Shown piece after piece: positions 5,377 through 64,000 of a stretch of DNA of 64,000 bases. The DNA lies in the IMG/VR virus record IMGVR_UViG_2778261638_000005, positions 1-64,000 of that record. One strand, written 5' to 3'. A program made the translations under genes and the position numbers. The DNA is from a virus (Duplodnaviria > Heunggongvirae > Uroviricota > Caudoviricetes). The notes beneath the pieces were generated by a model. The model was given only the letters and a program-made list of their open reading frames with translations. It did not search any database and was not told the origin of the DNA. Every line of letters begins with the position of its first letter. Within the stretch, counting starts at the first letter, position 1.

Positions 5377-7179
5377 TTAACCTCTCAAGAAACACGCCAC
5401 AGCGACATCAAACAGGCTGGAATCCTGTATTGCCTGCTCACTTTCCCTGTTCGCTTCATCCAGTACTTCACGCGCGCTGCGCGATTGTGGATTACCATCA
5501 TCATCCAGCACGGTGATTATCATGTCCGGAGATTCAAGCAGCGAGTCTTCAGCTATACGCAGATCAATATCTCCTGCCGGATCTGCCATCATTTTTTGTT
5601 CTGTCTGTTGCAATATCTTACCGGGCTCAAAAGGAGCTACTTCGTCTGGCGTCCTGACCTCTGCTGTTTTATAGAATGAAACAGCCTGAGCATTAAGTTC
5701 ACTTTCTGCCTGCTGTCGCCGTGCCAGTTCTGCTCGAGCTTCAAAAAACTGACCGCCAGGCTCATGCGGTGCCAACGCGTTACGGGAAAATTCCAGGCGT
5801 TCTTGTGCCTGCCGGATTCGTTGGTCAATATCGCGAAGTCTGGCCTGTTTATCTGATCGAGCACGAGATAAAGCCTTACCGCTACCGGTTGGCTCTTCTG
5901 CAAGAATTTGTGCGCGCTGTTCAGTGAGATTTTCAATAATTCGTTGGCTATTAGCGATTTCAGACTGGTAAACCTGTCTATCGCCACGCGGCAAAAGCTG
6001 CGCGGCCTGTTCTTCAAGCAACCGATTTTCTATAGCGCGCGCCGTTACTCCATCATCTACAGATGACAGAGCCTCATTAACTGCCTGAGACAGCAGACTC
6101 TTGCGCCCAGGAATTTCACTGAAAGATGCAGACTCAACAATGCTGGCAACGTCTACAGGTCTCCCCTGGCTAACATCAGACATGGCTTTTCGCAGAGCCT
6201 GAATGTGCGAATTACGCGAAAGCACGTTGATCGGAACGCCGGGAGCAATATCAATTTCAGCATGATGAGCGGCATTCGCCGCCAGTGCAGCATCGATATC
6301 AACTGGTGAAAAATTTGGTGCGCTTGTAGGCTCGCCGCGAGAGTTAATAAATCTGCCGACACCACCAAACGCCACCCCAAGAACAGCATCAATAGCAATT
6401 GCCTGTCGATCCAACACATCATACTGGTTAGCCATTTCGCTATAGCCACCATCACGAAGCGTTTTTGCAGTAAGCCCACGCTGTGCCATACCGAACGCAA
6501 TATTTGTACCTGCGGCATAGGCAATATCTGGCGTTGCACGTACTGCTGTTGCTGCGGCGCGTCGCACTGAACTTTCACCCGTCCGCGCAAGCTGAGCCGC
6601 CACACCTTCCGCCAGCGCACCACCAGCACGTAACCCGAGGCTCATAGGGATCAGTGTTCCGGCACCAGCAGTAATACCCTGCACTAATCCCGCTTCCTGC
6701 GCCGTCCTGAAATCAACACCCTGTGCTGTCAGCCGTTCAAACTCAGAAAAACCCTGTAGAGAAGTTACCGCCGCAGCACCTCCGACCGGACCACCGAGCG
6801 TTGTACCGACAACAGCCTGCCCGCCCATATCGAACAACCCATAAAGAACCTGCCCGGCGGTTCCGGTTGTCGCGGCATCAGGCGTCAGCCGCTTAACCTG
6901 CTGCTCTGCTAGTTTTCTCTGCTCAGCAATGTATGAAACTGAAGTGTCATTGAGCGAGGTGTTTTCGTTAACAAACTGAGCAATCGGGGATACGATTTTA
7001 TCCATCCCTGCCCATAGCAACTGATCTGGCTTTGCCACCAGCCCGGAGTACAAACCAGACAATGCCGCTCCTACAGCGTTGTCGAAAAAACCAACATCGC
7101 TGTTAAAGCCAGCTGGATTTGATGCTGCTTCGTCAAGCTGCTGATTCTGGTTTACTGGATTAAGGCCAAAGTAACTCAT
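5377..7179 (-). CDS. Internal virion protein (600 aa)
   Basis: Gly/Ala-rich large ORF, stop/start coupled to neighbours (7176..7179 overlap); position in virion module. Confidence 0.4.
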   Translation of the reverse strand: MSYFGLNPVNQNQQLDEAASNPAGFNSDVGFFDNAVGAALSGLYSGLVAKPDQLLWAGMDKIVSPIAQFVNENTSLNDTSVSYIAEQRKLAEQQVKRLTPDAATTGTAGQVLYGLFDMGGQAVVGTTLGGPVGGAAAVTSLQGFSEFERLTAQGVDFRTAQEAGLVQGITAGAGTLIPMSLGLRAGGALAEGVAAQLARTGESSVRRAAATAVRATPDIAYAAGTNIAFGMAQRGLTAKTLRDGGYSEMANQYDVLDRQAIAIDAVLGVAFGGVGRFINSRGEPTSAPNFSPVDIDAALAANAAHHAEIDIAPGVPINVLSRNSHIQALRKAMSDVSQGRPVDVASIVESASFSEIPGRKSLLSQAVNEALSSVDDGVTARAIENRLLEEQAAQLLPRGDRQVYQSEIANSQRIIENLTEQRAQILAEEPTGSGKALSRARSDKQARLRDIDQRIRQAQERLEFSRNALAPHEPGGQFFEARAELARRQQAESELNAQAVSFYKTAEVRTPDEVAPFEPGKILQQTEQKMMADPAGDIDLRIAEDSLLESPDMIITVLDDDGNPQSRSAREVLDEANRESEQAIQDSSLFDVAVACFLRG

Positions 7180-24537: not shown

Positions 24538-25154
24538 TGGTTGCCTCCTTTGCGAAGCTGGGCGGCGATATCTTCGAGAACGCCATCAGAGAATGAACGG
24601 TCAAAATCGCCTTCCGGCGCATTAGCCATAAACTCAGTAGAGGTAAGAATCATCCGGGCAATATCAGCGGCGTTCTTCGCAGTATCATCAATAAAACCAG
24701 CTTCCCAGGCAGCCAGCATTCTGTTCGCCACAAAGTAAGCGCCCTCCTTGCGTGCTTCAGTCTTCACTTCAGCCAAGAAAGCGTCGGTGGCTGGGGTTTT
24801 TATTTCGTTAAGTGCATCACTGAATCCACCTCTCTCCATACCTAGCTCTGCTTCGTAATCGGCATCGAATGCAGCGTCTTTGCAGAACTTCTTCAGCTTT
24901 GCATTCTCCGCTGCCAGCGCCGAAAACTTCTCGTGTGCCAACTTAACAGCTGCATCAGCCTGCTTAATTGACTCAATCGCTCTCTGGTGGTCTTCGGCCA
25001 GCGCATTAGCACGCACCAGTTGCACTTCCAATTGCGTTGCCAAATTGCTGATCAGCTTTGCCACACTACGCATATCAACGGCCCCACATTCTGCTTTCAG
25101 TTCCGAAGCCATCTCATGCCCGGCGGAAACTAACCCTTTGATATTACTTTCCAT
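24534..25154 (-). CDS. Ea22-like/coiled-coil phage protein (206 aa)
   Basis: Coiled-coil protein coupled to the downstream Ea22-like gene. Confidence 0.4.
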   Translation of the reverse strand: MESNIKGLVSAGHEMASELKAECGAVDMRSVAKLISNLATQLEVQLVRANALAEDHQRAIESIKQADAAVKLAHEKFSALAAENAKLKKFCKDAAFDADYEAELGMERGGFSDALNEIKTPATDAFLAEVKTEARKEGAYFVANRMLAAWEAGFIDDTAKNAADIARMILTSTEFMANAPEGDFDRSFSDGVLEDIAAQLRKGGNQ

Positions 25155-25215
25155 CTTTACCCTCGCTTATCCACATAACTTATTGATTACATTGATAACT
25201 AAAAAGATCGTCGAT

Positions 25216-25560
25216 TCAGAACTCTTCGATATTCCAGCCGCCACCTGCTTTCTTTGGCTTAACCGTTACCCCGATGATTCGGAACGGATACTGATCTGCG
25301 GCGACTTTGGTTTTCACCCTGGCGTCGTCGGTCCAGAAACCTTTCACTTCATGCAGTTCCATCTCACCAGTGGCGAGCATCACAGCGAAATCTGGCGTAT
25401 AGAACGTGTTGTCAGCCAGCCGCAGCTTGATACCCTCGAACCGATACCAGGCGATTTCCCCTGCACGTTTACGCTGCTCAAGGTGCTGGCAATACGCAGA
25501 TTCTGTTTTGTTCATCTGGCCTGTTTTGAGTCGACCAAGAGCCTGTATCTGCTTTCTCAT
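25216..25560 (-). CDS. DUF1064-like phage protein (114 aa)
   Basis: Sequence resembles the DUF1064 family common in lambdoid nin regions (recollection). Confidence 0.5.
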   Translation of the reverse strand: MRKQIQALGRLKTGQMNKTESAYCQHLEQRKRAGEIAWYRFEGIKLRLADNTFYTPDFAVMLATGEMELHEVKGFWTDDARVKTKVAADQYPFRIIGVTVKPKKAGGGWNIEEF

Positions 25561-25563
25561 GAT

Positions 25564-25640
25564 TTACCCCTGAGGTAATTAAAAACCACATAAGACACGA
25601 AATCAATAGATTTTAGAATATTTCATTACCCAGAAGGTAA
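25564..25640. promoter_or_regulatory. Third copy of regulatory cassette: palindromes TTACCCCTGAGGTAA (25564..25578) and TTACCCAGAAGGTAA (25626..25640) flanking a TTGATT-17-TTTAAT promoter-like element
   Basis: Minus-strand reading: TTGATT, 17 nt, TTTAAT, then the palindrome overlapping the leader/RBS of the DUF1064-like gene. Confidence 0.5.
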
Positions 25641-25785
25641 TTATTGAGGCGTAAAAAAATGCGCTATCGCGCTGGTATTACTTGATAAATCCTGCCGCCT
25701 TTCCCCGCCTGTATTCCTCCATCAGCCACTGCGCCGGTGTTATTCCCCCCAGGGTGGCGGCGTTAGGCATGCACTAAAGCGCGCA

Positions 25786-38934: not shown

Positions 38935-39291
38935 TTATGCAATGCGTTTGCTTTGTTTTGCCATCAGTACCAGCGAAATTTCGCCGCCGTCGTTTTTCGG
39001 TTCATCTGCCTGCCAGGCATTCGCCATCATCCAGGTTTCACCGGTGTCTGCCTGAAACTCTGCCGTGATGTTTTCCCAGCCGATGATTTCATCCAGACCG
39101 ATATCACCACCGCCCGGAATTTTGCATTCCAGCTTTGCGGCACGTGGTTTACCTTTCCAGCCATAAACCCGCGAGCCGGTCACTTCTTCACGGGTGATAC
39201 CGGAAGGCGTGAAGGAGGCACCTTCCATCGTTTCAAGCTCCATGCCATTGACACGGATGAACGCCACCCCCTGACGCTGATTTCCAGCCAT
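38935..39291 (-). CDS. Tail tube protein (Mu M/gp40-like), 118 aa
   Basis: Size and position directly after sheath gene. Confidence 0.7.
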   Translation of the reverse strand: MAGNQRQGVAFIRVNGMELETMEGASFTPSGITREEVTGSRVYGWKGKPRAAKLECKIPGGGDIGLDEIIGWENITAEFQADTGETWMMANAWQADEPKNDGGEISLVLMAKQSKRIA

Positions 39292-58392: not shown

Positions 58393-59325
58393 TTACCACC
58401 AGTTCAGTAATTTCGGGTTGCTGTAAACCTCTTTAAAAGCTGCTTTAATGTAGCCTTTGGATAGAGGAACGCCTTTCCCGCTGGCAGCCAGCCACGCCTG
58501 ATTCAGCGTATGAGTTAATACACGTAATGCACCTGGTTTTTCCGCGATGCTCTGCATGAGTGATAATTCATCTTCGCCCTCAATGCCCCAGGCTTTCGCA
58601 ATTGCCACCACGTCAGCCTTTTTGGCTTTACGTAGTTGCTTTGTTCTGGCGAAACGACTGAACAAACGTGCAAGGTCATCTGTTCCCCGGTGTGTGGCTT
58701 TGGCTAACTGGTGTGGGTTGCCAATCAATACCATCCCGACGCCGGTTGCATCCTGAATGGCGCGTAACTGCTCCAGCCCGTCCATGCTCAGGTGGTCAGC
58801 TTCATCCACAATAACCAGACCGCGTGTGCCATTCAGTTTTTTGCGAATGGCGCGGGTCAATGCGCCTTTATTCCTTTGCGGATTATCAATTCCCAGCGCG
58901 TCTGCCAGCTCCAGCAGACACTCAGTCACTGTTGAGTGTGCAGGGGAAAGGGTCACCATCCAGGTATTAGATACACGGTTACTGTATTCACGGGCCGCAA
59001 CGGTTTTACCAACACCCGGCACACCAACCAGAACGCTGATACAGCCCATAACACGCACGGTCTGAAACAGCTCGCGCAAATCACGGAGGGTTTGTGTTTC
59101 CACAAGTTGTGGTGCGCCAGGTAACTCCAGACTTTTTTGCCAGCTCTGATGCCACATCAGTAATTTGTCATGCATCCCTTCGGTATCACCTTTGTAACGG
59201 CCTTTGCGAAGTTCAGAAAGAGTGGCCTCCGACACCCCCGCTTCTTTAGCAATAGCGCTTTGTGTTTTTACGCCGTCAGTAATAAGTGTGTTAATCGTGT
59301 TGAAAACATCATTAATATCGGTCAT
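58393..59325 (-). CDS. Transposition ATPase B (MuB-like AAA+), 310 aa
   Basis: N-terminal HTH, Walker A GVPGVGKT, Walker B VIVDEADHL; follows A. Confidence 0.85.
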   Translation of the reverse strand: MTDINDVFNTINTLITDGVKTQSAIAKEAGVSEATLSELRKGRYKGDTEGMHDKLLMWHQSWQKSLELPGAPQLVETQTLRDLRELFQTVRVMGCISVLVGVPGVGKTVAAREYSNRVSNTWMVTLSPAHSTVTECLLELADALGIDNPQRNKGALTRAIRKKLNGTRGLVIVDEADHLSMDGLEQLRAIQDATGVGMVLIGNPHQLAKATHRGTDDLARLFSRFARTKQLRKAKKADVVAIAKAWGIEGEDELSLMQSIAEKPGALRVLTHTLNQAWLAASGKGVPLSKGYIKAAFKEVYSNPKLLNWW

Positions 59326-59398
59326 ATTATTCTCCGTTTATTCAAATCAGCTTTGTTTCCTTCGTTTAACAGTCCGTTCCCGCGGACTGTTTTTTTAT

Positions 59399-61486
59399 TC
59401 AGGCCAGCGGATCATCCTGTTCCTGTATGGCTACAAGCTTCTGCAAACCCAGCCTGAAATCGCGTTCATAATCTTCGTCGTAATCCTCCTCATAATCCTG
59501 TTGCTGGATGGTTACCGTATTGCCAACCGGGCGATAAACATTATCCAGCCAGGGTTCAGCCTGTTTGTGCTCCAGTATCTGAATGCCTTCATCCTCAGCA
59601 TCACGAATTTTTTCCTCAGCACGTTTGCGCATTCCTTTAATACGCTGCTGTTGTTTGTGATATTCAGCACTGACAGCAAAGGCTGCGCGTTTATTGCCGT
59701 TCCATATCGCCTCACAGATAAAGCTGCCGTCCTTGCGACGTACCGTAATTCGCTCGGCGTCATGAATGTCATAACTGATAAGTACTTTGCGACCGTGTTC
59801 GTCACGCAACTCCGGCGCGTAGTAAATATTGTTCAGCCACTGAATTTCGCACCGTCTTACCGGGCGTTCCACCATCGGGCGGAACATGTCGCGCAGCTCA
59901 AGATCACTCAGCCACTCAATTTCGGTGCCTTCTTCTGCCAGGCGTTTTTTTCTGAACTCTGCCGGGCTGTAATGCCGCCCGTTCGGTTTCATTGGCAGCT
60001 CAGAATGCGGGCGGTTGTTGTACCATTCCACGCCTTCACGAATAGCCTCAATAAGCTCCGCCCACGATGGTAGCTCGCGCATTGCAGCTTTCTGGCGGTC
60101 GTTCAGAGGCTTGTCCTGTTGCATGGCGTTAAACGCTGAACGCAGATCACGGTTAAGTACACGCAACGATTCCCGGTCAGCACCCTTGCCAAAATAGGTG
60201 CGATACCTCCTGGCTATACGCATCGGCAGTGTCCGGTTCAGGCGTTCAATAATGCCGCGCCCCTGTGGATTACCGGCAATACCGGTAGGGTGTTTAATCC
60301 CCAGGCGGGGCAGAATACCCACGATCTCTTTGTCCAGTATGTCAGCCGTTTCACCAGAACCATTATCCGAGTAATACAGAAACGGTTTTCCGTGGTTGCG
60401 AATGCCGTGCTGTATCGCACCGGCAACGGCGAACACGTTCTCGGCAAGGTCAAGACTCCAGCCAACAACAAACCGGGTTCCACCGTCGATCACAAATGTA
60501 ACTTCCGGTGAGAATGGACGCCCGTGGATCGGATGTGCACATTTCAGCTTCATACCGTGACCGTCACCAATCCAGACATAATTCACCGGCATAGCTGTCC
60601 AGTCGCGGCGGGTGAATCCTTCAAGCTGACGGTATTCACTGCCGGTAACGCGCCCTTTTTGTTTCACCACTTCCGGCAGTTTTTTCATGGCATACCGGAC
60701 AACATCATAGGAAGGCATCACCTCCAGCATGTATGGTTCGTCCGCATGGCGACGCTGCCAATCAGCGACAAAATCCTCATAGGCTTCAGACATAGGCCTG
60801 CCGTTAGCCTGACGATACTGCGCCAGAAATTCAGGCAGCCAGCTAATTTCTTCCGGTTTTATTTCGTCGCGCTTTCCTGGTGCCAGTAACAGCAGTCGTT
60901 CTGCGGCATTCTGTGCTTTGTTAAACGCAGCTATCCAACGTTTGAGCGTAATTGCGCTCAGAGTTCGCTCTTTTCCTTTACGGGCATTAGCAGTAATGAC
61001 CAAAGATTCCAGGCGTTCTTCCAGGTTACCCTGCGCTAACCGCGACACAATAAAACGTATAGCGCTGGCACAACTGAATCCCGGCTCCTGGCTAATTCGT
61101 AGAACTTCACAGACAAGAGCAATGCGCGCTTCTGCAACTTTACGTTGATTTTCCGTAAGCGCATTCAGACGCTCTTCTACCAATTGTGGCGAACCGCGAT
61201 ATGCCTCAACAGGCTGTACAACATTTTGTTTGCGTTCACGCTTTACAGGAGGCTGGGTAGTTATCTCCCGCGGGGCGCTTGCCATCAGTTGAGCTACATG
61301 TCGCTCACGTAACGCCCGTTGTGTAACCGGAGGGAGGCAGTCGATGCTGTATTCAATGGTTTTTGAACCCGCACGTTTGCGCCTGAAATGCTCAGATGAG
61401 GCCAGTTTCCTTATGGAATACCGCACCCCTTGCGCAGTTCCCGGCATACCTGGTAACCCTACAAGCTCATTAACTGATACAAACAT
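59399..61486 (-). CDS. DDE transposase A (MuA-like), 695 aa
   Basis: Size, position after ner, N-terminal end-binding-type domain, acidic C-terminus. Confidence 0.85.
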   Translation of the reverse strand: MFVSVNELVGLPGMPGTAQGVRYSIRKLASSEHFRRKRAGSKTIEYSIDCLPPVTQRALRERHVAQLMASAPREITTQPPVKRERKQNVVQPVEAYRGSPQLVEERLNALTENQRKVAEARIALVCEVLRISQEPGFSCASAIRFIVSRLAQGNLEERLESLVITANARKGKERTLSAITLKRWIAAFNKAQNAAERLLLLAPGKRDEIKPEEISWLPEFLAQYRQANGRPMSEAYEDFVADWQRRHADEPYMLEVMPSYDVVRYAMKKLPEVVKQKGRVTGSEYRQLEGFTRRDWTAMPVNYVWIGDGHGMKLKCAHPIHGRPFSPEVTFVIDGGTRFVVGWSLDLAENVFAVAGAIQHGIRNHGKPFLYYSDNGSGETADILDKEIVGILPRLGIKHPTGIAGNPQGRGIIERLNRTLPMRIARRYRTYFGKGADRESLRVLNRDLRSAFNAMQQDKPLNDRQKAAMRELPSWAELIEAIREGVEWYNNRPHSELPMKPNGRHYSPAEFRKKRLAEEGTEIEWLSDLELRDMFRPMVERPVRRCEIQWLNNIYYAPELRDEHGRKVLISYDIHDAERITVRRKDGSFICEAIWNGNKRAAFAVSAEYHKQQQRIKGMRKRAEEKIRDAEDEGIQILEHKQAEPWLDNVYRPVGNTVTIQQQDYEEDYDEDYERDFRLGLQKLVAIQEQDDPLA

Positions 61487-61488
61487 TT

Positions 61489-61725
61489 TTATGCCACCTT
61501 ACGAGCGTAACGGCTGGGCCAGATCTCCTCCGGCGCAACACCAATAGCATCAGCAATAATGCGCTCATATTTTGGGCATTTGCGGTACAGGGCATTCTTT
61601 AAAGAATCCTGGTTTAAACCGGCTTCAATGGACAGAGAGCGTAAAGTAAAACCTTTTACATGCACCGCCGCGACAACATGCGCGGGGTGCCAGTCCTGTT
61701 TAACAACTTCATTTATAGACATCAT
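61489..61725 (-). CDS. ner: Ner-like DNA-binding regulator (78 aa from MMSINEV)
   Basis: C-terminal ...EEIWPSRY matches the Ner signature; AAGGA RBS before ATG 61725. Confidence 0.8.
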   Translation of the reverse strand: MMSINEVVKQDWHPAHVVAAVHVKGFTLRSLSIEAGLNQDSLKNALYRKCPKYERIIADAIGVAPEEIWPSRYARKVA

Positions 61726-61865
61726 TCGTTTATCCTTAAAAGTTATCTGCGCGGATAACACCGCCGGATAATCTCTACAGATAAATATTTGATCACTACA
61801 AAAGAAAAGTAAAGGTGTTTTATCTCTTTCTTTGGTTGTTTTTATCTACAAAAGGATATTTCTTT
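61726..61865. promoter_or_regulatory. Divergent early/repressor control region with repeated TTATC/GATAA half-sites (putative operators)
   Basis: TTATCTGCGCGGATAA palindrome at 61733..61748 and further GATAA/TTATC repeats between ner and c. Confidence 0.5.
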
Positions 61866-62450
61866 ATGAATCATATGGTTAACAGAAAAGAAAGAAGCAC
61901 TGAAAAAGAAAGTGATTTTTCTTTTCCTGTGTTTCAAAAAGAAAGCATTAAAGAGCGCCTAGCCATGCTAATGCGCGGGCGCTCCAAGACTGCCGTGGCG
62001 AAGGCGTGGGGGCTACCGTTCTCAACACTTAACAACTACTTTGAGAAAGATGCGACACCATCTCTACAAGTAGCTAGTCAGATTGCTTTTGCAGAAGGGG
62101 TGAGCATTGATTGGCTTGTTTTTGGCAAGGAGGATATAGAACCAATATCACCTAAAATAGATGAAAACGTCCAATTGCCCCTAGATATAACGCTACAGCG
62201 CCTTCTTGCTATACTAAGTGCTTTAGAAGCATCAGAGGCAGAGCGATTATCAAAAATCCTCGCGCTAAATGGAGCTAAGTACTTGTCACGGTTACTTGAA
62301 CCAGAGAATCAAGAACTAATCCAACTTGAAGGACGAAAACGTGCAGCAGCTCTACTTTTAGATCATTTATCGGATGAAAGAGTTAGAGAGATTTTGGCAG
62401 AAATTGAAAGCGATAAACTCTCAAGTAGTTTAGAATCGAAGGCGGGCTAA
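61866..62450 (+). CDS. Repressor c (Mu Rep-like), 194 aa from MNHMVNRK
   Basis: Divergent from ner at the element left end; N-terminal HTH-like segment; AAAGGA RBS. Confidence 0.6.
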   Translation: MNHMVNRKERSTEKESDFSFPVFQKESIKERLAMLMRGRSKTAVAKAWGLPFSTLNNYFEKDATPSLQVASQIAFAEGVSIDWLVFGKEDIEPISPKIDENVQLPLDITLQRLLAILSALEASEAERLSKILALNGAKYLSRLLEPENQELIQLEGRKRAAALLLDHLSDERVREILAEIESDKLSSSLESKAG

Positions 62451-62507: not shown

Positions 62508-62672
62508 CAGTAGTATCAAATATTTTTTCGTTTTTAGCTTTCTTTGCGACAGTAGTATCAAATCACATGTTGTGCGCATAACACTGTTTTACGTCATAAC
62601 TGTTTGTTTTATCCCATCAAATCCCGTTTGATCCACTTTCCTCCCGGATTTTTCAGCAGTATCAAATGATTT
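62508..62672. repeat. Left-end transposase-binding-type repeats (CAGTAGTATCAAAT x3)
   Basis: Copies at 62508..62521, 62550..62563 and 62654..62667 (third is CAGCAGTATCAAAT); reverse complement of the motif at the right end. Confidence 0.6.
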
Positions 62673-63391
62673 ACCTCTCTATAGCACCCGAAACTTCGCC
62701 CTGGTGGATGGTAAACGTCTCTCCCTGTTTCCGGAGGCGTACTCATGGGTTCTGGCTTTGCCTGTATGCTGATCACCGGATCGGGTATCTGCTGTCCGGA
62801 AGCCACCTTTTTCGCCCAATCATCGAGCAGCCTGCGCGCGTGTTTCTCAACCTCAATCTCGCTAAGCTGGCGCTGATACATTGCACGGCGGGTATCACAT
62901 ACGACCCAGTACATAACCGGATGCCGCCACGGGAATCTTTCGGGACCACCAGGATATAAACTTTTTTCCTTGCTGTACCGGTGAAACTCCGTCATCACAT
63001 CGTCAATGGTGACGCCAAGAACCATCTTGCTGTCTTTGCACCACTTGATGAATTGCCCTGGCGACGGCCAGAACGGAGAATCACTGGCGCGGGCGTGGCG
63101 CATACCAGCAGAAACCTGTTCACGGGTTCGGATCCCCCCTTCAGCAAACGCAGCAATCCACTGCTGTTTTGCAGCAACTTCCTGCTCTGGCGTCTTCAGG
63201 TTGGTTACCACTGCCGCCGGAAACAGTTGTTTCAACTGTTTGAAAAGGGCATCAACAAGCCTCTCTGCTGACATGTTCACTACGTTGTCATTGTTGGTGT
63301 ACTGATGCTCATAACCTGACATGCGAGAAAGGGCCTCTCCGTCACGGTTTTGTATTGCGGTAAAAACGTTGTTCACAAGAAATCCTCCCAT
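62609..63391 (-). CDS. Lambda P-like replication protein (helicase loader); 3'-terminal about 25 codons derive from the Mu-like end
   Basis: VSAGMRHARASDSPFWPSPGQFIKWCKD aligns with lambda P VNAGMRVARRQNRPFLPSPGQFVAWCRE (recollection); reading frame runs across the inferred insertion junction. Confidence 0.7.
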   Translation of the reverse strand: MGGFLVNNVFTAIQNRDGEALSRMSGYEHQYTNNDNVVNMSAERLVDALFKQLKQLFPAAVVTNLKTPEQEVAAKQQWIAAFAEGGIRTREQVSAGMRHARASDSPFWPSPGQFIKWCKDSKMVLGVTIDDVMTEFHRYSKEKSLYPGGPERFPWRHPVMYWVVCDTRRAMYQRQLSEIEVEKHARRLLDDWAKKVASGQQIPDPVISIQAKPEPMSTPPETGRDVYHPPGRSFGCYREVNHLILLKNPGGKWIKRDLMG

Positions 63392-64000
63392 GCTTCAGGG
63401 CTGTTCCAGTGCGGAACGTTGTTATCAGGTAATGTTGATTGCTTCTGTCTGCTAATCTGCAGCCGCCTTGCCAGCTTCTGCTCCCACTGTGCCTGATGGT
63501 ATGCCTTACCCTCAGCCATCCAGTAAATTCTGAACTCTGCAAGTTCCTGTGCCGTTGGCAGACTGTCCAGGTAGATCCCCTGCAATGAGCTTTTCCGAAG
63601 AAAGTCATCTGATGGCTGCCATTGTTCATGCATGACAAATTTGCCTAATTGCCCTGGCCCACCAGGAGGAACAAAGTTATTCATCACGGCGTTGTTTGCG
63701 CCGGGGTCATGAGGCACAGAATTCCCGTTTTTTGTCCTGCTCTCCCTCTCTTGGTTAAATGACTGGTTATATGACTGGTTCTGGATCCCGTTTTTGGGAT
63801 CATTCAACATCCCGTTTTTGGGATCATTCAACATCCCGTTTTTGGTTATATTACCGTTTTCGGGAACATTACCGTTTTCGGGTTCATTCCCCCCTTCCCG
63901 GTTGCCTTTAATGTTCCCGTTTTTGGTTATATTAAGAGAGAAAACCCGCACTCTTTTCGTCGCTCCCTTTCTCTCTTCGGTATCTGAAATAAGCCCCATT
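63373..64000 (-). CDS. Lambda O-like replication initiator, C-terminal part (5' end outside window)
   Basis: Immediately upstream of P-like gene; coding region contains iteron array; Asn/Gly-rich repeats encoded by the iterons. Confidence 0.55.
   Translation of the reverse strand, partial: MGLISDTEERKGATKRVRVFSLNITKNGNIKGNREGGNEPENGNVPENGNITKNGMLNDPKNGMLNDPKNGIQNQSYNQSFNQERESRTKNGNSVPHDPGANNAVMNNFVPPGGPGQLGKFVMHEQWQPSDDFLRKSSLQGIYLDSLPTAQELAEFRIYWMAEGKAYHQAQWEQKLARRLQISRQKQSTLPDNNVPHWNSPEAWEDFL
63722..63936. repeat. Iteron array (ori-lambda-type) inside the O-like gene
   Basis: Core CCCGTTTTT(G)G about six times; two full 24-bp units (C/G)ATCCCGTTTTTGGGATCATTCAA at 63785..63832, each an ATCCC...GGGAT inverted repeat; A/T-rich on the low-coordinate side. 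Confidence 0.65.

Follow-up and report, generated by a model that had tools for sequence, protein, structure and literature searches.

In bacteriophage lambda, the iterons and the unwinding region of the replication origin lie in the middle of the initiator gene, and the O protein binds the dyad-symmetric iterons as dimers (PMC7466680, PMC5043065). The A+T-rich region of this origin is strand-asymmetric in its purine content (PMC5043065). In the Stx phages P27 and 933W, the O gene contains six iterons, of which the distal ones are less canonical, and the linker of the encoded protein is lengthened (PMC7466680), and sequence-specific 13-mers have been described in the DNA unwinding elements (DUEs) of oriC and of RK2 oriV (PMC5043065). 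Here, we analyzed a 64,000-nt stretch of viral DNA (positions 1 to 64,000 of the IMG/VR record IMGVR_UViG_2778261638_000005; hereafter, the window), in which an array of short repeats lies inside an O-like initiator gene. We consider it highly probable that a phiV10-like (Uetakevirus) prophage has its replication origin in this array, which lies within the linker of that prophage's own initiator gene, binding by the initiator and origin firing being predictions from the DNA sequence. In design, the element is a lambda-type iteron origin serving another initiator family, and its initiator is not a homologue of lambda O.

The type of element is familiar, and the general understanding of phage origins is left unchanged by it. 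What the analysis offers is a concrete and testable origin map, consisting of six sites and a candidate unwinding element, for phiV10-type phages; phiV10 itself features in reviews on reporter and engineered phages for E. coli O157. The map extends to a widespread initiator family, for which public records annotate just a 'primosomal' or 'helix-turn-helix' protein and no origin. The point of greatest interest is whether a fixed composite of iteron and 12-mers, accompanying the N-terminal domain (N-domain) of the initiator, acts as a sequence-specific unit of unwinding.

The iteron array and its initiator gene

The features of the locus are given below, with the iterons numbered from the promoter-proximal end.

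63373–64000, minus strand: 3′ part of the O-like initiator gene (codons 64–271 of 271); the open reading frame (ORF) runs past the end of the window
63914–63929, minus strand: iteron 1 (promoter-proximal), TAACCAAAAACGGGAA; partial dyad, core CCAAAAACGG at 63917–63926
63885–63913, minus strand: degenerate spacer, CATTAAAGGCAACCGGGAAGGGGGGAATG; polymorphic, with no conserved site
63869–63884, minus strand: iteron 2, AACCCGAAAACGGTAA; partial dyad, 18-bp-spaced subarray
63851–63866, minus strand: iteron 3, TTCCCGAAAACGGTAA; partial dyad, 18-bp-spaced subarray
63833–63848, minus strand: iteron 4, TAACCAAAAACGGGAT; partial dyad, opens the 24-bp-spaced subarray; TACCC in most relatives
63809–63824, minus strand: iteron 5, ATCCCAAAAACGGGAT; perfect 5-bp dyad arms
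63785–63800, minus strand: iteron 6, ATCCCAAAAACGGGAT; perfect dyad, the last site, adjoining the 12-mers
63746–63783, minus strand: candidate unwinding element, CAGAAC plus three 12-mers (GAACCAGTCATA, TAACCAGTCATT and TAACCAAGAGAG); 39% GC
63722–63752, minus strand: purine-rich, strand-asymmetric tract of 31 nt, 28 of which are purines on the coding strand
63722–63735: so-called seventh copy, TTCCCGTTTTTTGT, read as ACAAAAAACGGGAA in the minus-strand purine tract; without the 3′ GG

The array is statistically real. The pattern CCGTTTTYGG occurs six times in the window, always on the plus strand and always between 63788 and 63926, where 0.32 ± 0.55 matches per window are expected and none of 100 dinucleotide shuffles of the whole window reached six; no second cluster of this pattern was found anywhere else in the 64 kb. 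The 24-bp unit ATCCCGTTTTTGGGATCATTCAAC is present in 2.5 copies at 100% identity (63785–63845), which bears out the two full tandem units described in the original prediction. Both full units contain the perfect dyad ATCCC-N6-GGGAT around a central A-tract, and the likeness to lambda iterons that had been claimed for them holds against the annotated lambda sequence TCCCTCAAAACGAGGGA. The remaining four sites are partial dyads, and the start-to-start spacing along the array is 24, 24, 18, 18 and 45 bp. Six or more copies had been predicted. Six good cores were recovered. The candidate seventh has no GG arm and varies among close relatives, where it reads AAAAAACGGGAAT, AAAAAGCGGGGAT, AAAAACCGGGGAT or AAAAACCCGAGGT, and for these reasons it was rejected and left out of the count.

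Close relatives of the locus (94–100% identical, from a single-protein locus search) are informative for polymorphism and not for covariation. Across about 75 near-identical copies from E. coli, there is essentially no variation in the 12-mers and in the three iterons of the 24-bp-spaced subarray, and none at all in iteron 5; the polymorphic spots are the seventh copy and the degenerate spacer, the latter being the most variable stretch. The core of iteron 1 is retained in 70 of 74 sequences, the other four having CCAAAAAAGG. Copy number among the E. coli relatives shifts by entire 18-nt or 12-nt units, and the 18-bp unit of iterons 2 and 3 is found in 2 to 4 copies; two IMG/VR relatives (L065 and L070) have three and four copies of it beside a constant 24-bp subarray. 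In Superficieibacter (L096), the spacer is deleted along with iterons 2 and 3. A promoter and terminator scan yielded nothing but two plus-strand hairpins, GGGAT-N8-ATCCC followed by a T-run, at 63795–63814 and 63819–63838 (6096–6115 and 6120–6139 in the relative L002 described below). In each, the right arm of an iteron pairs with the left arm of the following one, and the hairpins have weak scores as intrinsic terminators, in antisense orientation; we do not take them to be functional, and they are probably by-products of adjacent dyads and a T-run.

The start codon of the initiator gene lies ~188 nt past the end of the window, which holds the last ~23 residues of the winged-helix region with its wing (MGLISDTEERKGATKRVRVFSLN), the repeat linker and the DnaT-like C-terminal domain (C-domain). 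The full gene was read in an uninterrupted relative, a prophage of E. coli WP3-S18-ESBL-09 (L002; gene at 5674–6489, minus strand), to which positions 62684–64000 are 99.8% identical; their identity to phage phiV10 is 97.4%. The gene has 271 codons in L002 and 275 in phiV10, and its annotation in these two is merely 'DnaT-like ssDNA-binding domain-containing protein' or 'replication initiation protein'. In the full-length L002 protein, Pfam places an HTH_36 winged helix (PF13730) at amino acids (aa) 18–67 (E 1.8e-10; 40.9 bits, against a cut-off of 25) and a DnaT domain (PF17948) at aa 184–252 (E 1.1e-15), and PHROG 1032, 'replication initiation protein', matches across aa 1–269 (E 2.7e-107). 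Chains of the DnaT C-domain in the PDB match the protein with E values of 1e-19 to 1e-21. The DnaT equivalog NF002770 was not reached (86.9 bits against a cut-off of 201, over profile positions 84–169 only), and the common ground with DnaT is the C-domain alone (the Pfam 'DnaT DNA-binding domain'). Neither a PF04492 domain nor a match to lambda O was found (Pfam returned PF13730 and PF17948, and BLASTP against lambda O was negative), and a Pfam scan at E<=1 found no Rep_3 domain.

As predicted, the array lies inside the O-like coding region. It occupies nt 260–404 of the gene, between the segments coding for HTH_36 and the DnaT domain, and its repeats encode the linker, aa 87–160, as TKNG..PENG..PENG..TKNG..PKNG..PKNG followed by IQNQSYNQSFNQ. 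It had also been placed immediately upstream of a P-like gene; a P-type gene does follow the O-like gene, but the array itself lies 346–553 nt upstream of the P-like start (63376).

For a wider comparison, we used about a dozen phage homologues and 65 loci from species-representative genomes, which were retrieved by a four-sequence N-domain alignment and include Vibrio, Pseudoalteromonas, Marinomonas, Acinetobacter, Providencia, Proteus, Wohlfahrtiimonas and Arsenophonus. A family motif, CC[AG]W3[ACT][CT]GG, expected about once per 11 kb, was set on a few phages and then tested on the 65 independent species-level loci. It occurs 151 times in nt 250–560 of the genes (19.0 kb), 4 times in the rest of the genes (35.9 kb) and at ~24 distinct sites in the flanks (123.5 kb), an enrichment of ~70-fold directly 3′ of the part that codes for the N-domain. 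At least three sites are present in 30 of the 65 loci, and the most frequent spacings are 24 nt (50 times), 17 nt (14 times) and 18 nt (10 times). For 64 of the 65 loci, the flanks contain no more than isolated motif sites. Arsenophonus nasoniae (L118) has a second array of four sites (268–336; spacing 17, 18 and 24) about 1 kb upstream of, and outside, the initiator gene, which may have been left behind by another copy or may be an additional cluster of sites.

A candidate unwinding element beside the last iteron

In the window, CAGAAC begins exactly 4 nt past the last core. Three 12-nt units follow one another on the coding strand (63746–63781), and Tandem Repeats Finder reports a 12-bp tandem repeat of 2.4 copies at 63752–63780. 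This repeat and the purine tract were both absent from the original prediction. Among 35 arrays from different genera, CAGAAY stands exactly 4 nt past the last 10-nt core in 33, and units headed by RAAYC are spaced 12 or 13 nt after it; three or four such units are chained in 20 of the 35 arrays, and in 21 the units fall in more than one reading frame. The phiV10 copy (L001) has one additional 12-mer, SYNQSYNQSFNQ. On the coding strand, the 45 nt past the last iteron contain 47% A and 13% G, compared with 34% A and 23% G gene-wide.

Because no lambda-like A+T-rich block was found, we turned to nearest-neighbour stability profiles. The two least stable 30-mers of the E. coli gene flank the array (dG −33.5 and −34.9; gene mean −40.2, standard deviation 2.7), and the A/T-rich flanks of the original prediction hold in a modest form, the lowest GC content being just 0.33–0.35 per 40 nt. 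The 30-mer past the last iteron is the second least stable of the E. coli gene and the least stable of the phiV10 gene, and this region likewise ranks first or second in the genes of GF-2 and Vibrio phage H20. The least stable 30-mer of the gene begins at most 90 nt past the last iteron in 16 of 28 loci (chance 0.11; p 4e-9). CAGAAY and the 12/13-mers are a likely candidate for a DUE and no more than that, because the segment, at 39% GC, is not strongly A+T-rich.

Considering that the 12/13-mers travel with the N-domain regardless of the C-domain or the partner gene, a more specific arrangement can be entertained, which we propose tentatively and think somewhat doubtful. The last iteron, CAGAAY and two or three GAAYCnnnCAnnn 12/13-mers might constitute a sequence-specific basal unwinding unit, in which the 12/13-mers would be read as single-stranded DNA (ssDNA) by the iteron-binding N-terminal module. 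Such a unit would resemble a DnaA box plus DnaA-trio, or the binding of one DUE strand by a Rep protein. If this were true, the unit would amount to a portable 'initiator head plus origin' cassette, used by temperate phages of Enterobacterales, Vibrio, Pseudoalteromonas, Acinetobacter and beyond.

The origin as a whole may be expected to work as follows. Dimers of the HTH_36 N-domain would bind the six 16-bp NNNCC-(A-rich N6)-GGNNN sites, and the six sites, at their 18/24-bp spacing, would build an O-some-like nucleoprotein complex. The duplex would open at CAGAAY, the three 12-mers and the purine-asymmetric tract, as their conservation and low duplex stability suggest, this putative opening composite adjoining, at a constant distance, the iteron that is both the last and the most symmetric. 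Judging from homology, the DnaT-like C-domain would hold ssDNA and/or recruit the lambda-P-like loader, which would bring in host DnaB. From the layout itself, transcription of the initiator gene crosses the origin, as it does in lambda.

The initiator might instead bind these sites mainly for the purpose of control (autoregulation, titration or handcuffing, or exclusion of related phages), opening and helicase loading taking place elsewhere in the phage genome. Plasmid iterons also serve copy control, and ectopic copies of ori-lambda are reported to inhibit lambda (PMC4488673, PMC3349717); moreover, unwinding at the array is a step that we infer. However, the array is accompanied at a fixed offset by a 12/13-mer element that usually has the lowest duplex stability in the gene, it has no second motif cluster beside it in the 64-kb window, the flanking DNA of the relatives shows nothing but isolated sites at 64 of 65 loci, and in Edwardsiella phage GF-2 it sits exactly at the position of ori-lambda. 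We therefore regard control as an unlikely main function of the sites and retain their interpretation as an origin.

Co-inheritance with the N-domain and selection at the DNA level

Across the wider family, the outer arms of the sites covary, as ATCCC/GGGAT, GTACC/GGTAC, CCCCC/GGGGG, CACCC/GGGTG and GTCCC/GGGAC. The arm complementarity sum is 254, compared with 169 ± 9.6 after shuffling, and none of 2000 shuffles reached 254. The last site is the most symmetric one, with at least 2 of 3 outer positions complementary in 39 of 45 cases. Covariation of the outer arms fits a two-fold symmetric dimer, and dyad sites as such suggest binding by dimers as in lambda, in contrast to plasmid iterons (PMC5043065).

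The sites are inherited together with the HTH_36 N-domain. They occur with it across Enterobacterales, Vibrio, Acinetobacter, Pseudoalteromonas, Burkholderia and an EBPR-sludge podovirus, and the N-domain and its iterons are combined with DnaT-like, lambda-O-like or unassigned C-domains and stand beside P-like, DnaC-like or DnaB-like genes. The cassette precedes a gene for a DnaC/IstB-like ATPase in Vibrio salinus (L097, 2068–2790), and genes for DnaB-like helicases in the Acinetobacter phages AP22 and Ab105-2phi (L087, 2237–3402; L088, 2277–3486). With P-, DnaC/IstB- and DnaB-like neighbours, the cassette thus occurs together with three or more types of partner for helicase delivery. Exchange is modular, the N-domain and the origin forming one unit and the C-domain and the loader the other. 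The motif is absent from the Tyrion, SPN1S and TL-2011b genes, which share the DnaT-like C-domain only; a P-type gene adjoins in Tyrion and TL-2011b, and no P is annotated in SPN1S. In Moraxella phage Mcat8 (L092), whose N-domain is ~30% identical, the motif is replaced by another repeat in eight copies. The Mcat8 repeats, at nt ~230–500 of the gene, consist of GGGGGTGCAA and ACAATTTTGT motifs, encode KGGTILH.ERGCKNDT at the equivalent linker position and presumably represent a different iteron specificity.

This distribution suggests that the binder of the sites is the N-domain of the initiator itself. It is very unlikely that the dyads serve another DNA-binding protein, such as a host factor or a different phage regulator, unrelated to the initiator whose gene they lie in. 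Short A-tract dyads could suit many dimeric regulators, and the initiator was assigned as binder by us; against this, in phage backbones and hosts that are unrelated to one another, the sites are found only alongside the HTH_36 N-domain, change where that domain diverges (as in Mcat8), are absent where the C-domain alone is shared, and have no DnaA boxes in or beside them.

The array DNA is under purifying selection in its own right, and it offers a clean natural case of DNA-level selection within a coding sequence. Across the relatives, the motif is read in all three frames, and 16 of the 30 loci with at least three sites use more than one. In Vibrio salinus, a single intact ORF of 256 aa reads CCAAAAACGG as PKNG, PKTE and SQKR, with 17-nt spacings; the core is read as (T/S)QKR in GF-2, PPompW and the EBPR podovirus, and as DPKT in Vibrio phage H20. 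In the origin segment, E. coli and Superficieibacter agree at 90% of third-codon positions, compared with 57% elsewhere (Fisher p 3e-6). In blastn searches, the 261-nt origin region alone matches Vibrio (73%) and Edwardsiella (80%) phages whose N-domains have 55–56% protein identity to the initiator of the window.

The idea that the repeats are merely a low-complexity, N/G/P/K-rich PKNG peptide linker generated by replication slippage, with neither DNA function nor initiator binding, is strongly disfavoured and very unlikely: in the window and its close relatives, every copy does lie in one frame and encodes (P/T)(K/E)NG, copy number does vary by whole 18- or 12-nt units as slippage predicts, and the composition looks disordered, but the relatives read the motif in three frames even inside one intact ORF, 17-nt spacings are common, third-codon positions are far better conserved in the array than elsewhere, the dyad arms covary, and the 12/13-mers change frame as well. 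The three frames, the 17-nt spacings, the frozen third positions and the reach of blastn together make a purely peptide-level explanation untenable on comparative grounds. The case that would have spoken against the original prediction, a tandem duplication of coding sequence without DNA function, is contradicted by the frames, the arm covariation and the frozen synonymous sites.

Several observations weigh against the array being an origin. In the window, all six sites lie in one reading frame, so that selection on peptide and on DNA is locally inseparable and the argument rests on the relatives. The compared loci share descent, and part of the conservation is inherited; the saturation of third positions elsewhere in the gene speaks against inheritance as the principal cause. 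The N-domain aligns with lambda O with an hhalign probability of 5% (HTH plus wing against lambda O aa 73–117), and without significant similarity between the two the iteron resemblance may be convergence. A strongly A+T-rich block of the lambda type was not found in this gene, where even the 12-mers have 39% GC, and in Acinetobacter phages, which are A+T-rich, the least stable DNA lies outside the 12-mer region. Origin annotation was not found in the public records of the family that were inspected, nor was the iteron sequence, or any mention of iterons linked to phiV10, epsilon15, Uetakevirus, GF-2 or H20-like phages, in the openly searchable literature, outside of which the original epsilon15 and phiV10 genome papers lie. 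Set against the evidence above, the origin interpretation made in the original prediction is nevertheless supported, as far as comparison of sequences can support it.

The interrupted replication module and known origins

Two further features complete the module.

62609–63376, minus strand: lambda-P-like helicase-loader gene, truncated; PF06992, E 1.6e-56
25775–62683, no strand assigned: Mu-like transposable prophage of 36.9 kb inside the P-like gene

The P-like protein shares 31% identity with lambda P (E 6e-37), and, following the annotation of L002, its GTG start overlaps the O-like stop by 4 nt (GTGA). The intact gene of L002 encodes 261 aa. In the window, as had been proposed, the P gene of the host prophage is disrupted by a Mu-like insertion: positions 24765–25774 correspond to L002 3979–4988 and positions 62684–64000 to L002 4985–6301, and this split match places the 36.9-kb element at 25775–62683. 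A 4-bp GCAC duplication flanks the element (junctions 25774/25775 and 62683/62684); the target duplication typical of Mu is 5 bp. Both ends of the element begin TA... and have AAATCATTTGATAC ~10 nt inward, and ORFs at 58393–62450 encode repressor-like, Ner-like, transposase-like and MuB-like proteins. The insertion cuts the P-like gene 31 codons ahead of its stop. Genuine P sequence ends at 62684, and the codons from 62683 to the stop at 62609 come from the Mu-like end, giving a chimeric C-terminus of 24 codons (YREVNHLILLKNPGGKWIKRDLMG, 62609–62683).

The O-like gene of this copy has a C-to-T change at 63977 (G-to-A on the coding strand), by which DTGERKG becomes DTEERKG (G71E). Residue 71, in the wing motif, is G in 80 of 80 close relatives and invariant in a nine-sequence alignment of the family. 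Since P lacks its last 31 codons and O has the G71E substitution, the module of this copy is probably non-functional, the origin DNA itself being intact. The two lesions suggest a replication module in decay, broken in this genome by a transposable phage.

Related modules are also found on circular records. Two 41,027-bp 'plasmids' of duck E. coli (NZ_CP079771.1 and NZ_CP079768.1) have the O-like/P module at 97.8% identity and may be episomal or induced phage genomes, as their size matches the 39–41 kb of phiV10-type phages. An 8,461-bp circular E. coli plasmid, pZ1323HEC0067-2 (NZ_CP148379.1; L162), has cI-like, cro-like, ydaT, O-like and short P genes together with cargo (a defence-like ATP-binding protein with an HNH endonuclease, hokD and rem). 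Its O-like gene is 36% identical to the window protein by tblastn, and the similar gene of PPompW encodes HTH_36 plus DnaT. In layout, the plasmid resembles lambda-dv, and it appears to be a natural counterpart of lambda-dv for the replication region of a PPompW/Qin-type prophage. For the replicon competence of the module, or of its 36%-identical relative, the 41-kb and 8.46-kb circles are circumstantial evidence.

Origins inside initiator genes are also present in P22 (gene 18), in SPP1 (oriL in gene 38) and in the rep genes of the lactococcal phages TP901-1 and Tuc2009, with initiator families and repeat sequences that differ from those described here. Iteron plasmids (RepA, pi, RepE) combine a Rep_3 initiator with DnaA boxes, and the present element has neither; no DnaA box was found in or beside the array, the nearest perfect box being ~1.7 kb away and the number of boxes at chance level. 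With the DUEs of oriC and RK2, it shares two or three tandem 12/13-nt repeats beside the initiator sites, whose sequence is conserved beyond A+T content. The DUE 13-mer consensus is GATCTnTTnTTTT. The consensus GAAYCnnnCAnnn differs from that of the oriC and RK2 13-mers, and the present element lies within a coding sequence. Six iterons, less canonical distal sites and a linker lengthened by the array are features in common with P27 and 933W; these two have true lambda O homologues and iterons of the lambda type, whereas the present family is unrelated to them in sequence.

The closest parallel is ori-lambda itself (NC_001416, 39034–39170). Both arrays are contained in the coding sequence of the initiator, at the linker that joins its DNA-binding N-domain to its C-domain, and both consist of ATCCC...GGGAT dyads around an A-tract, spaced about 18–24 bp from start to start (20, 24 and 23 in lambda). 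In both, an A-rich, purine-asymmetric region, in the present element no more than a candidate for unwinding, is promoter-distal to the last site, a P-type loader gene comes next and transcription crosses the origin. The differences are as follows. The initiator combines HTH_36 with a DnaT-like C-domain, as opposed to PF04492 with the lambda O C-domain; the sites are of 16 bp (5+6+5), compared with 18–19 bp in lambda; there are six of them in two subarrays with 18- and 24-bp spacing, unlike ori-lambda; and the candidate unwinding region consists of conserved 12/13-mers at 39% GC, where lambda has a ~40-bp, highly A+T-rich block. The label 'ori-lambda-type' of the original prediction is thus apt for the position, the dyads and the P-type loader, less clearly so for an A+T-rich unwinding region, and not for the sequence of the initiator, for which 'O-like' is not to be taken as homology.

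The two designs meet in the Edwardsiella phages GF-2 and Edno5 (L084 and L085; gene at 1501–2343), whose initiator gene is a natural hybrid. It joins an HTH_36 N-domain, ATCCCAAAATTGGGAT iterons and 12-mers to a lambda O C-domain, and a P gene follows. Amino acids 137–280 of the GF-2 protein are 62% identical to aa 156–299 of lambda O (E 2e-67), and the annotated lambda iterons (39034–39118) and A-rich region end just ahead of codon 156. The junction in GF-2 lies directly after the array, so that array and N-domain replace ori-lambda as a block, and this modularity of N- and C-domains matches the one established for lambdoid O proteins.

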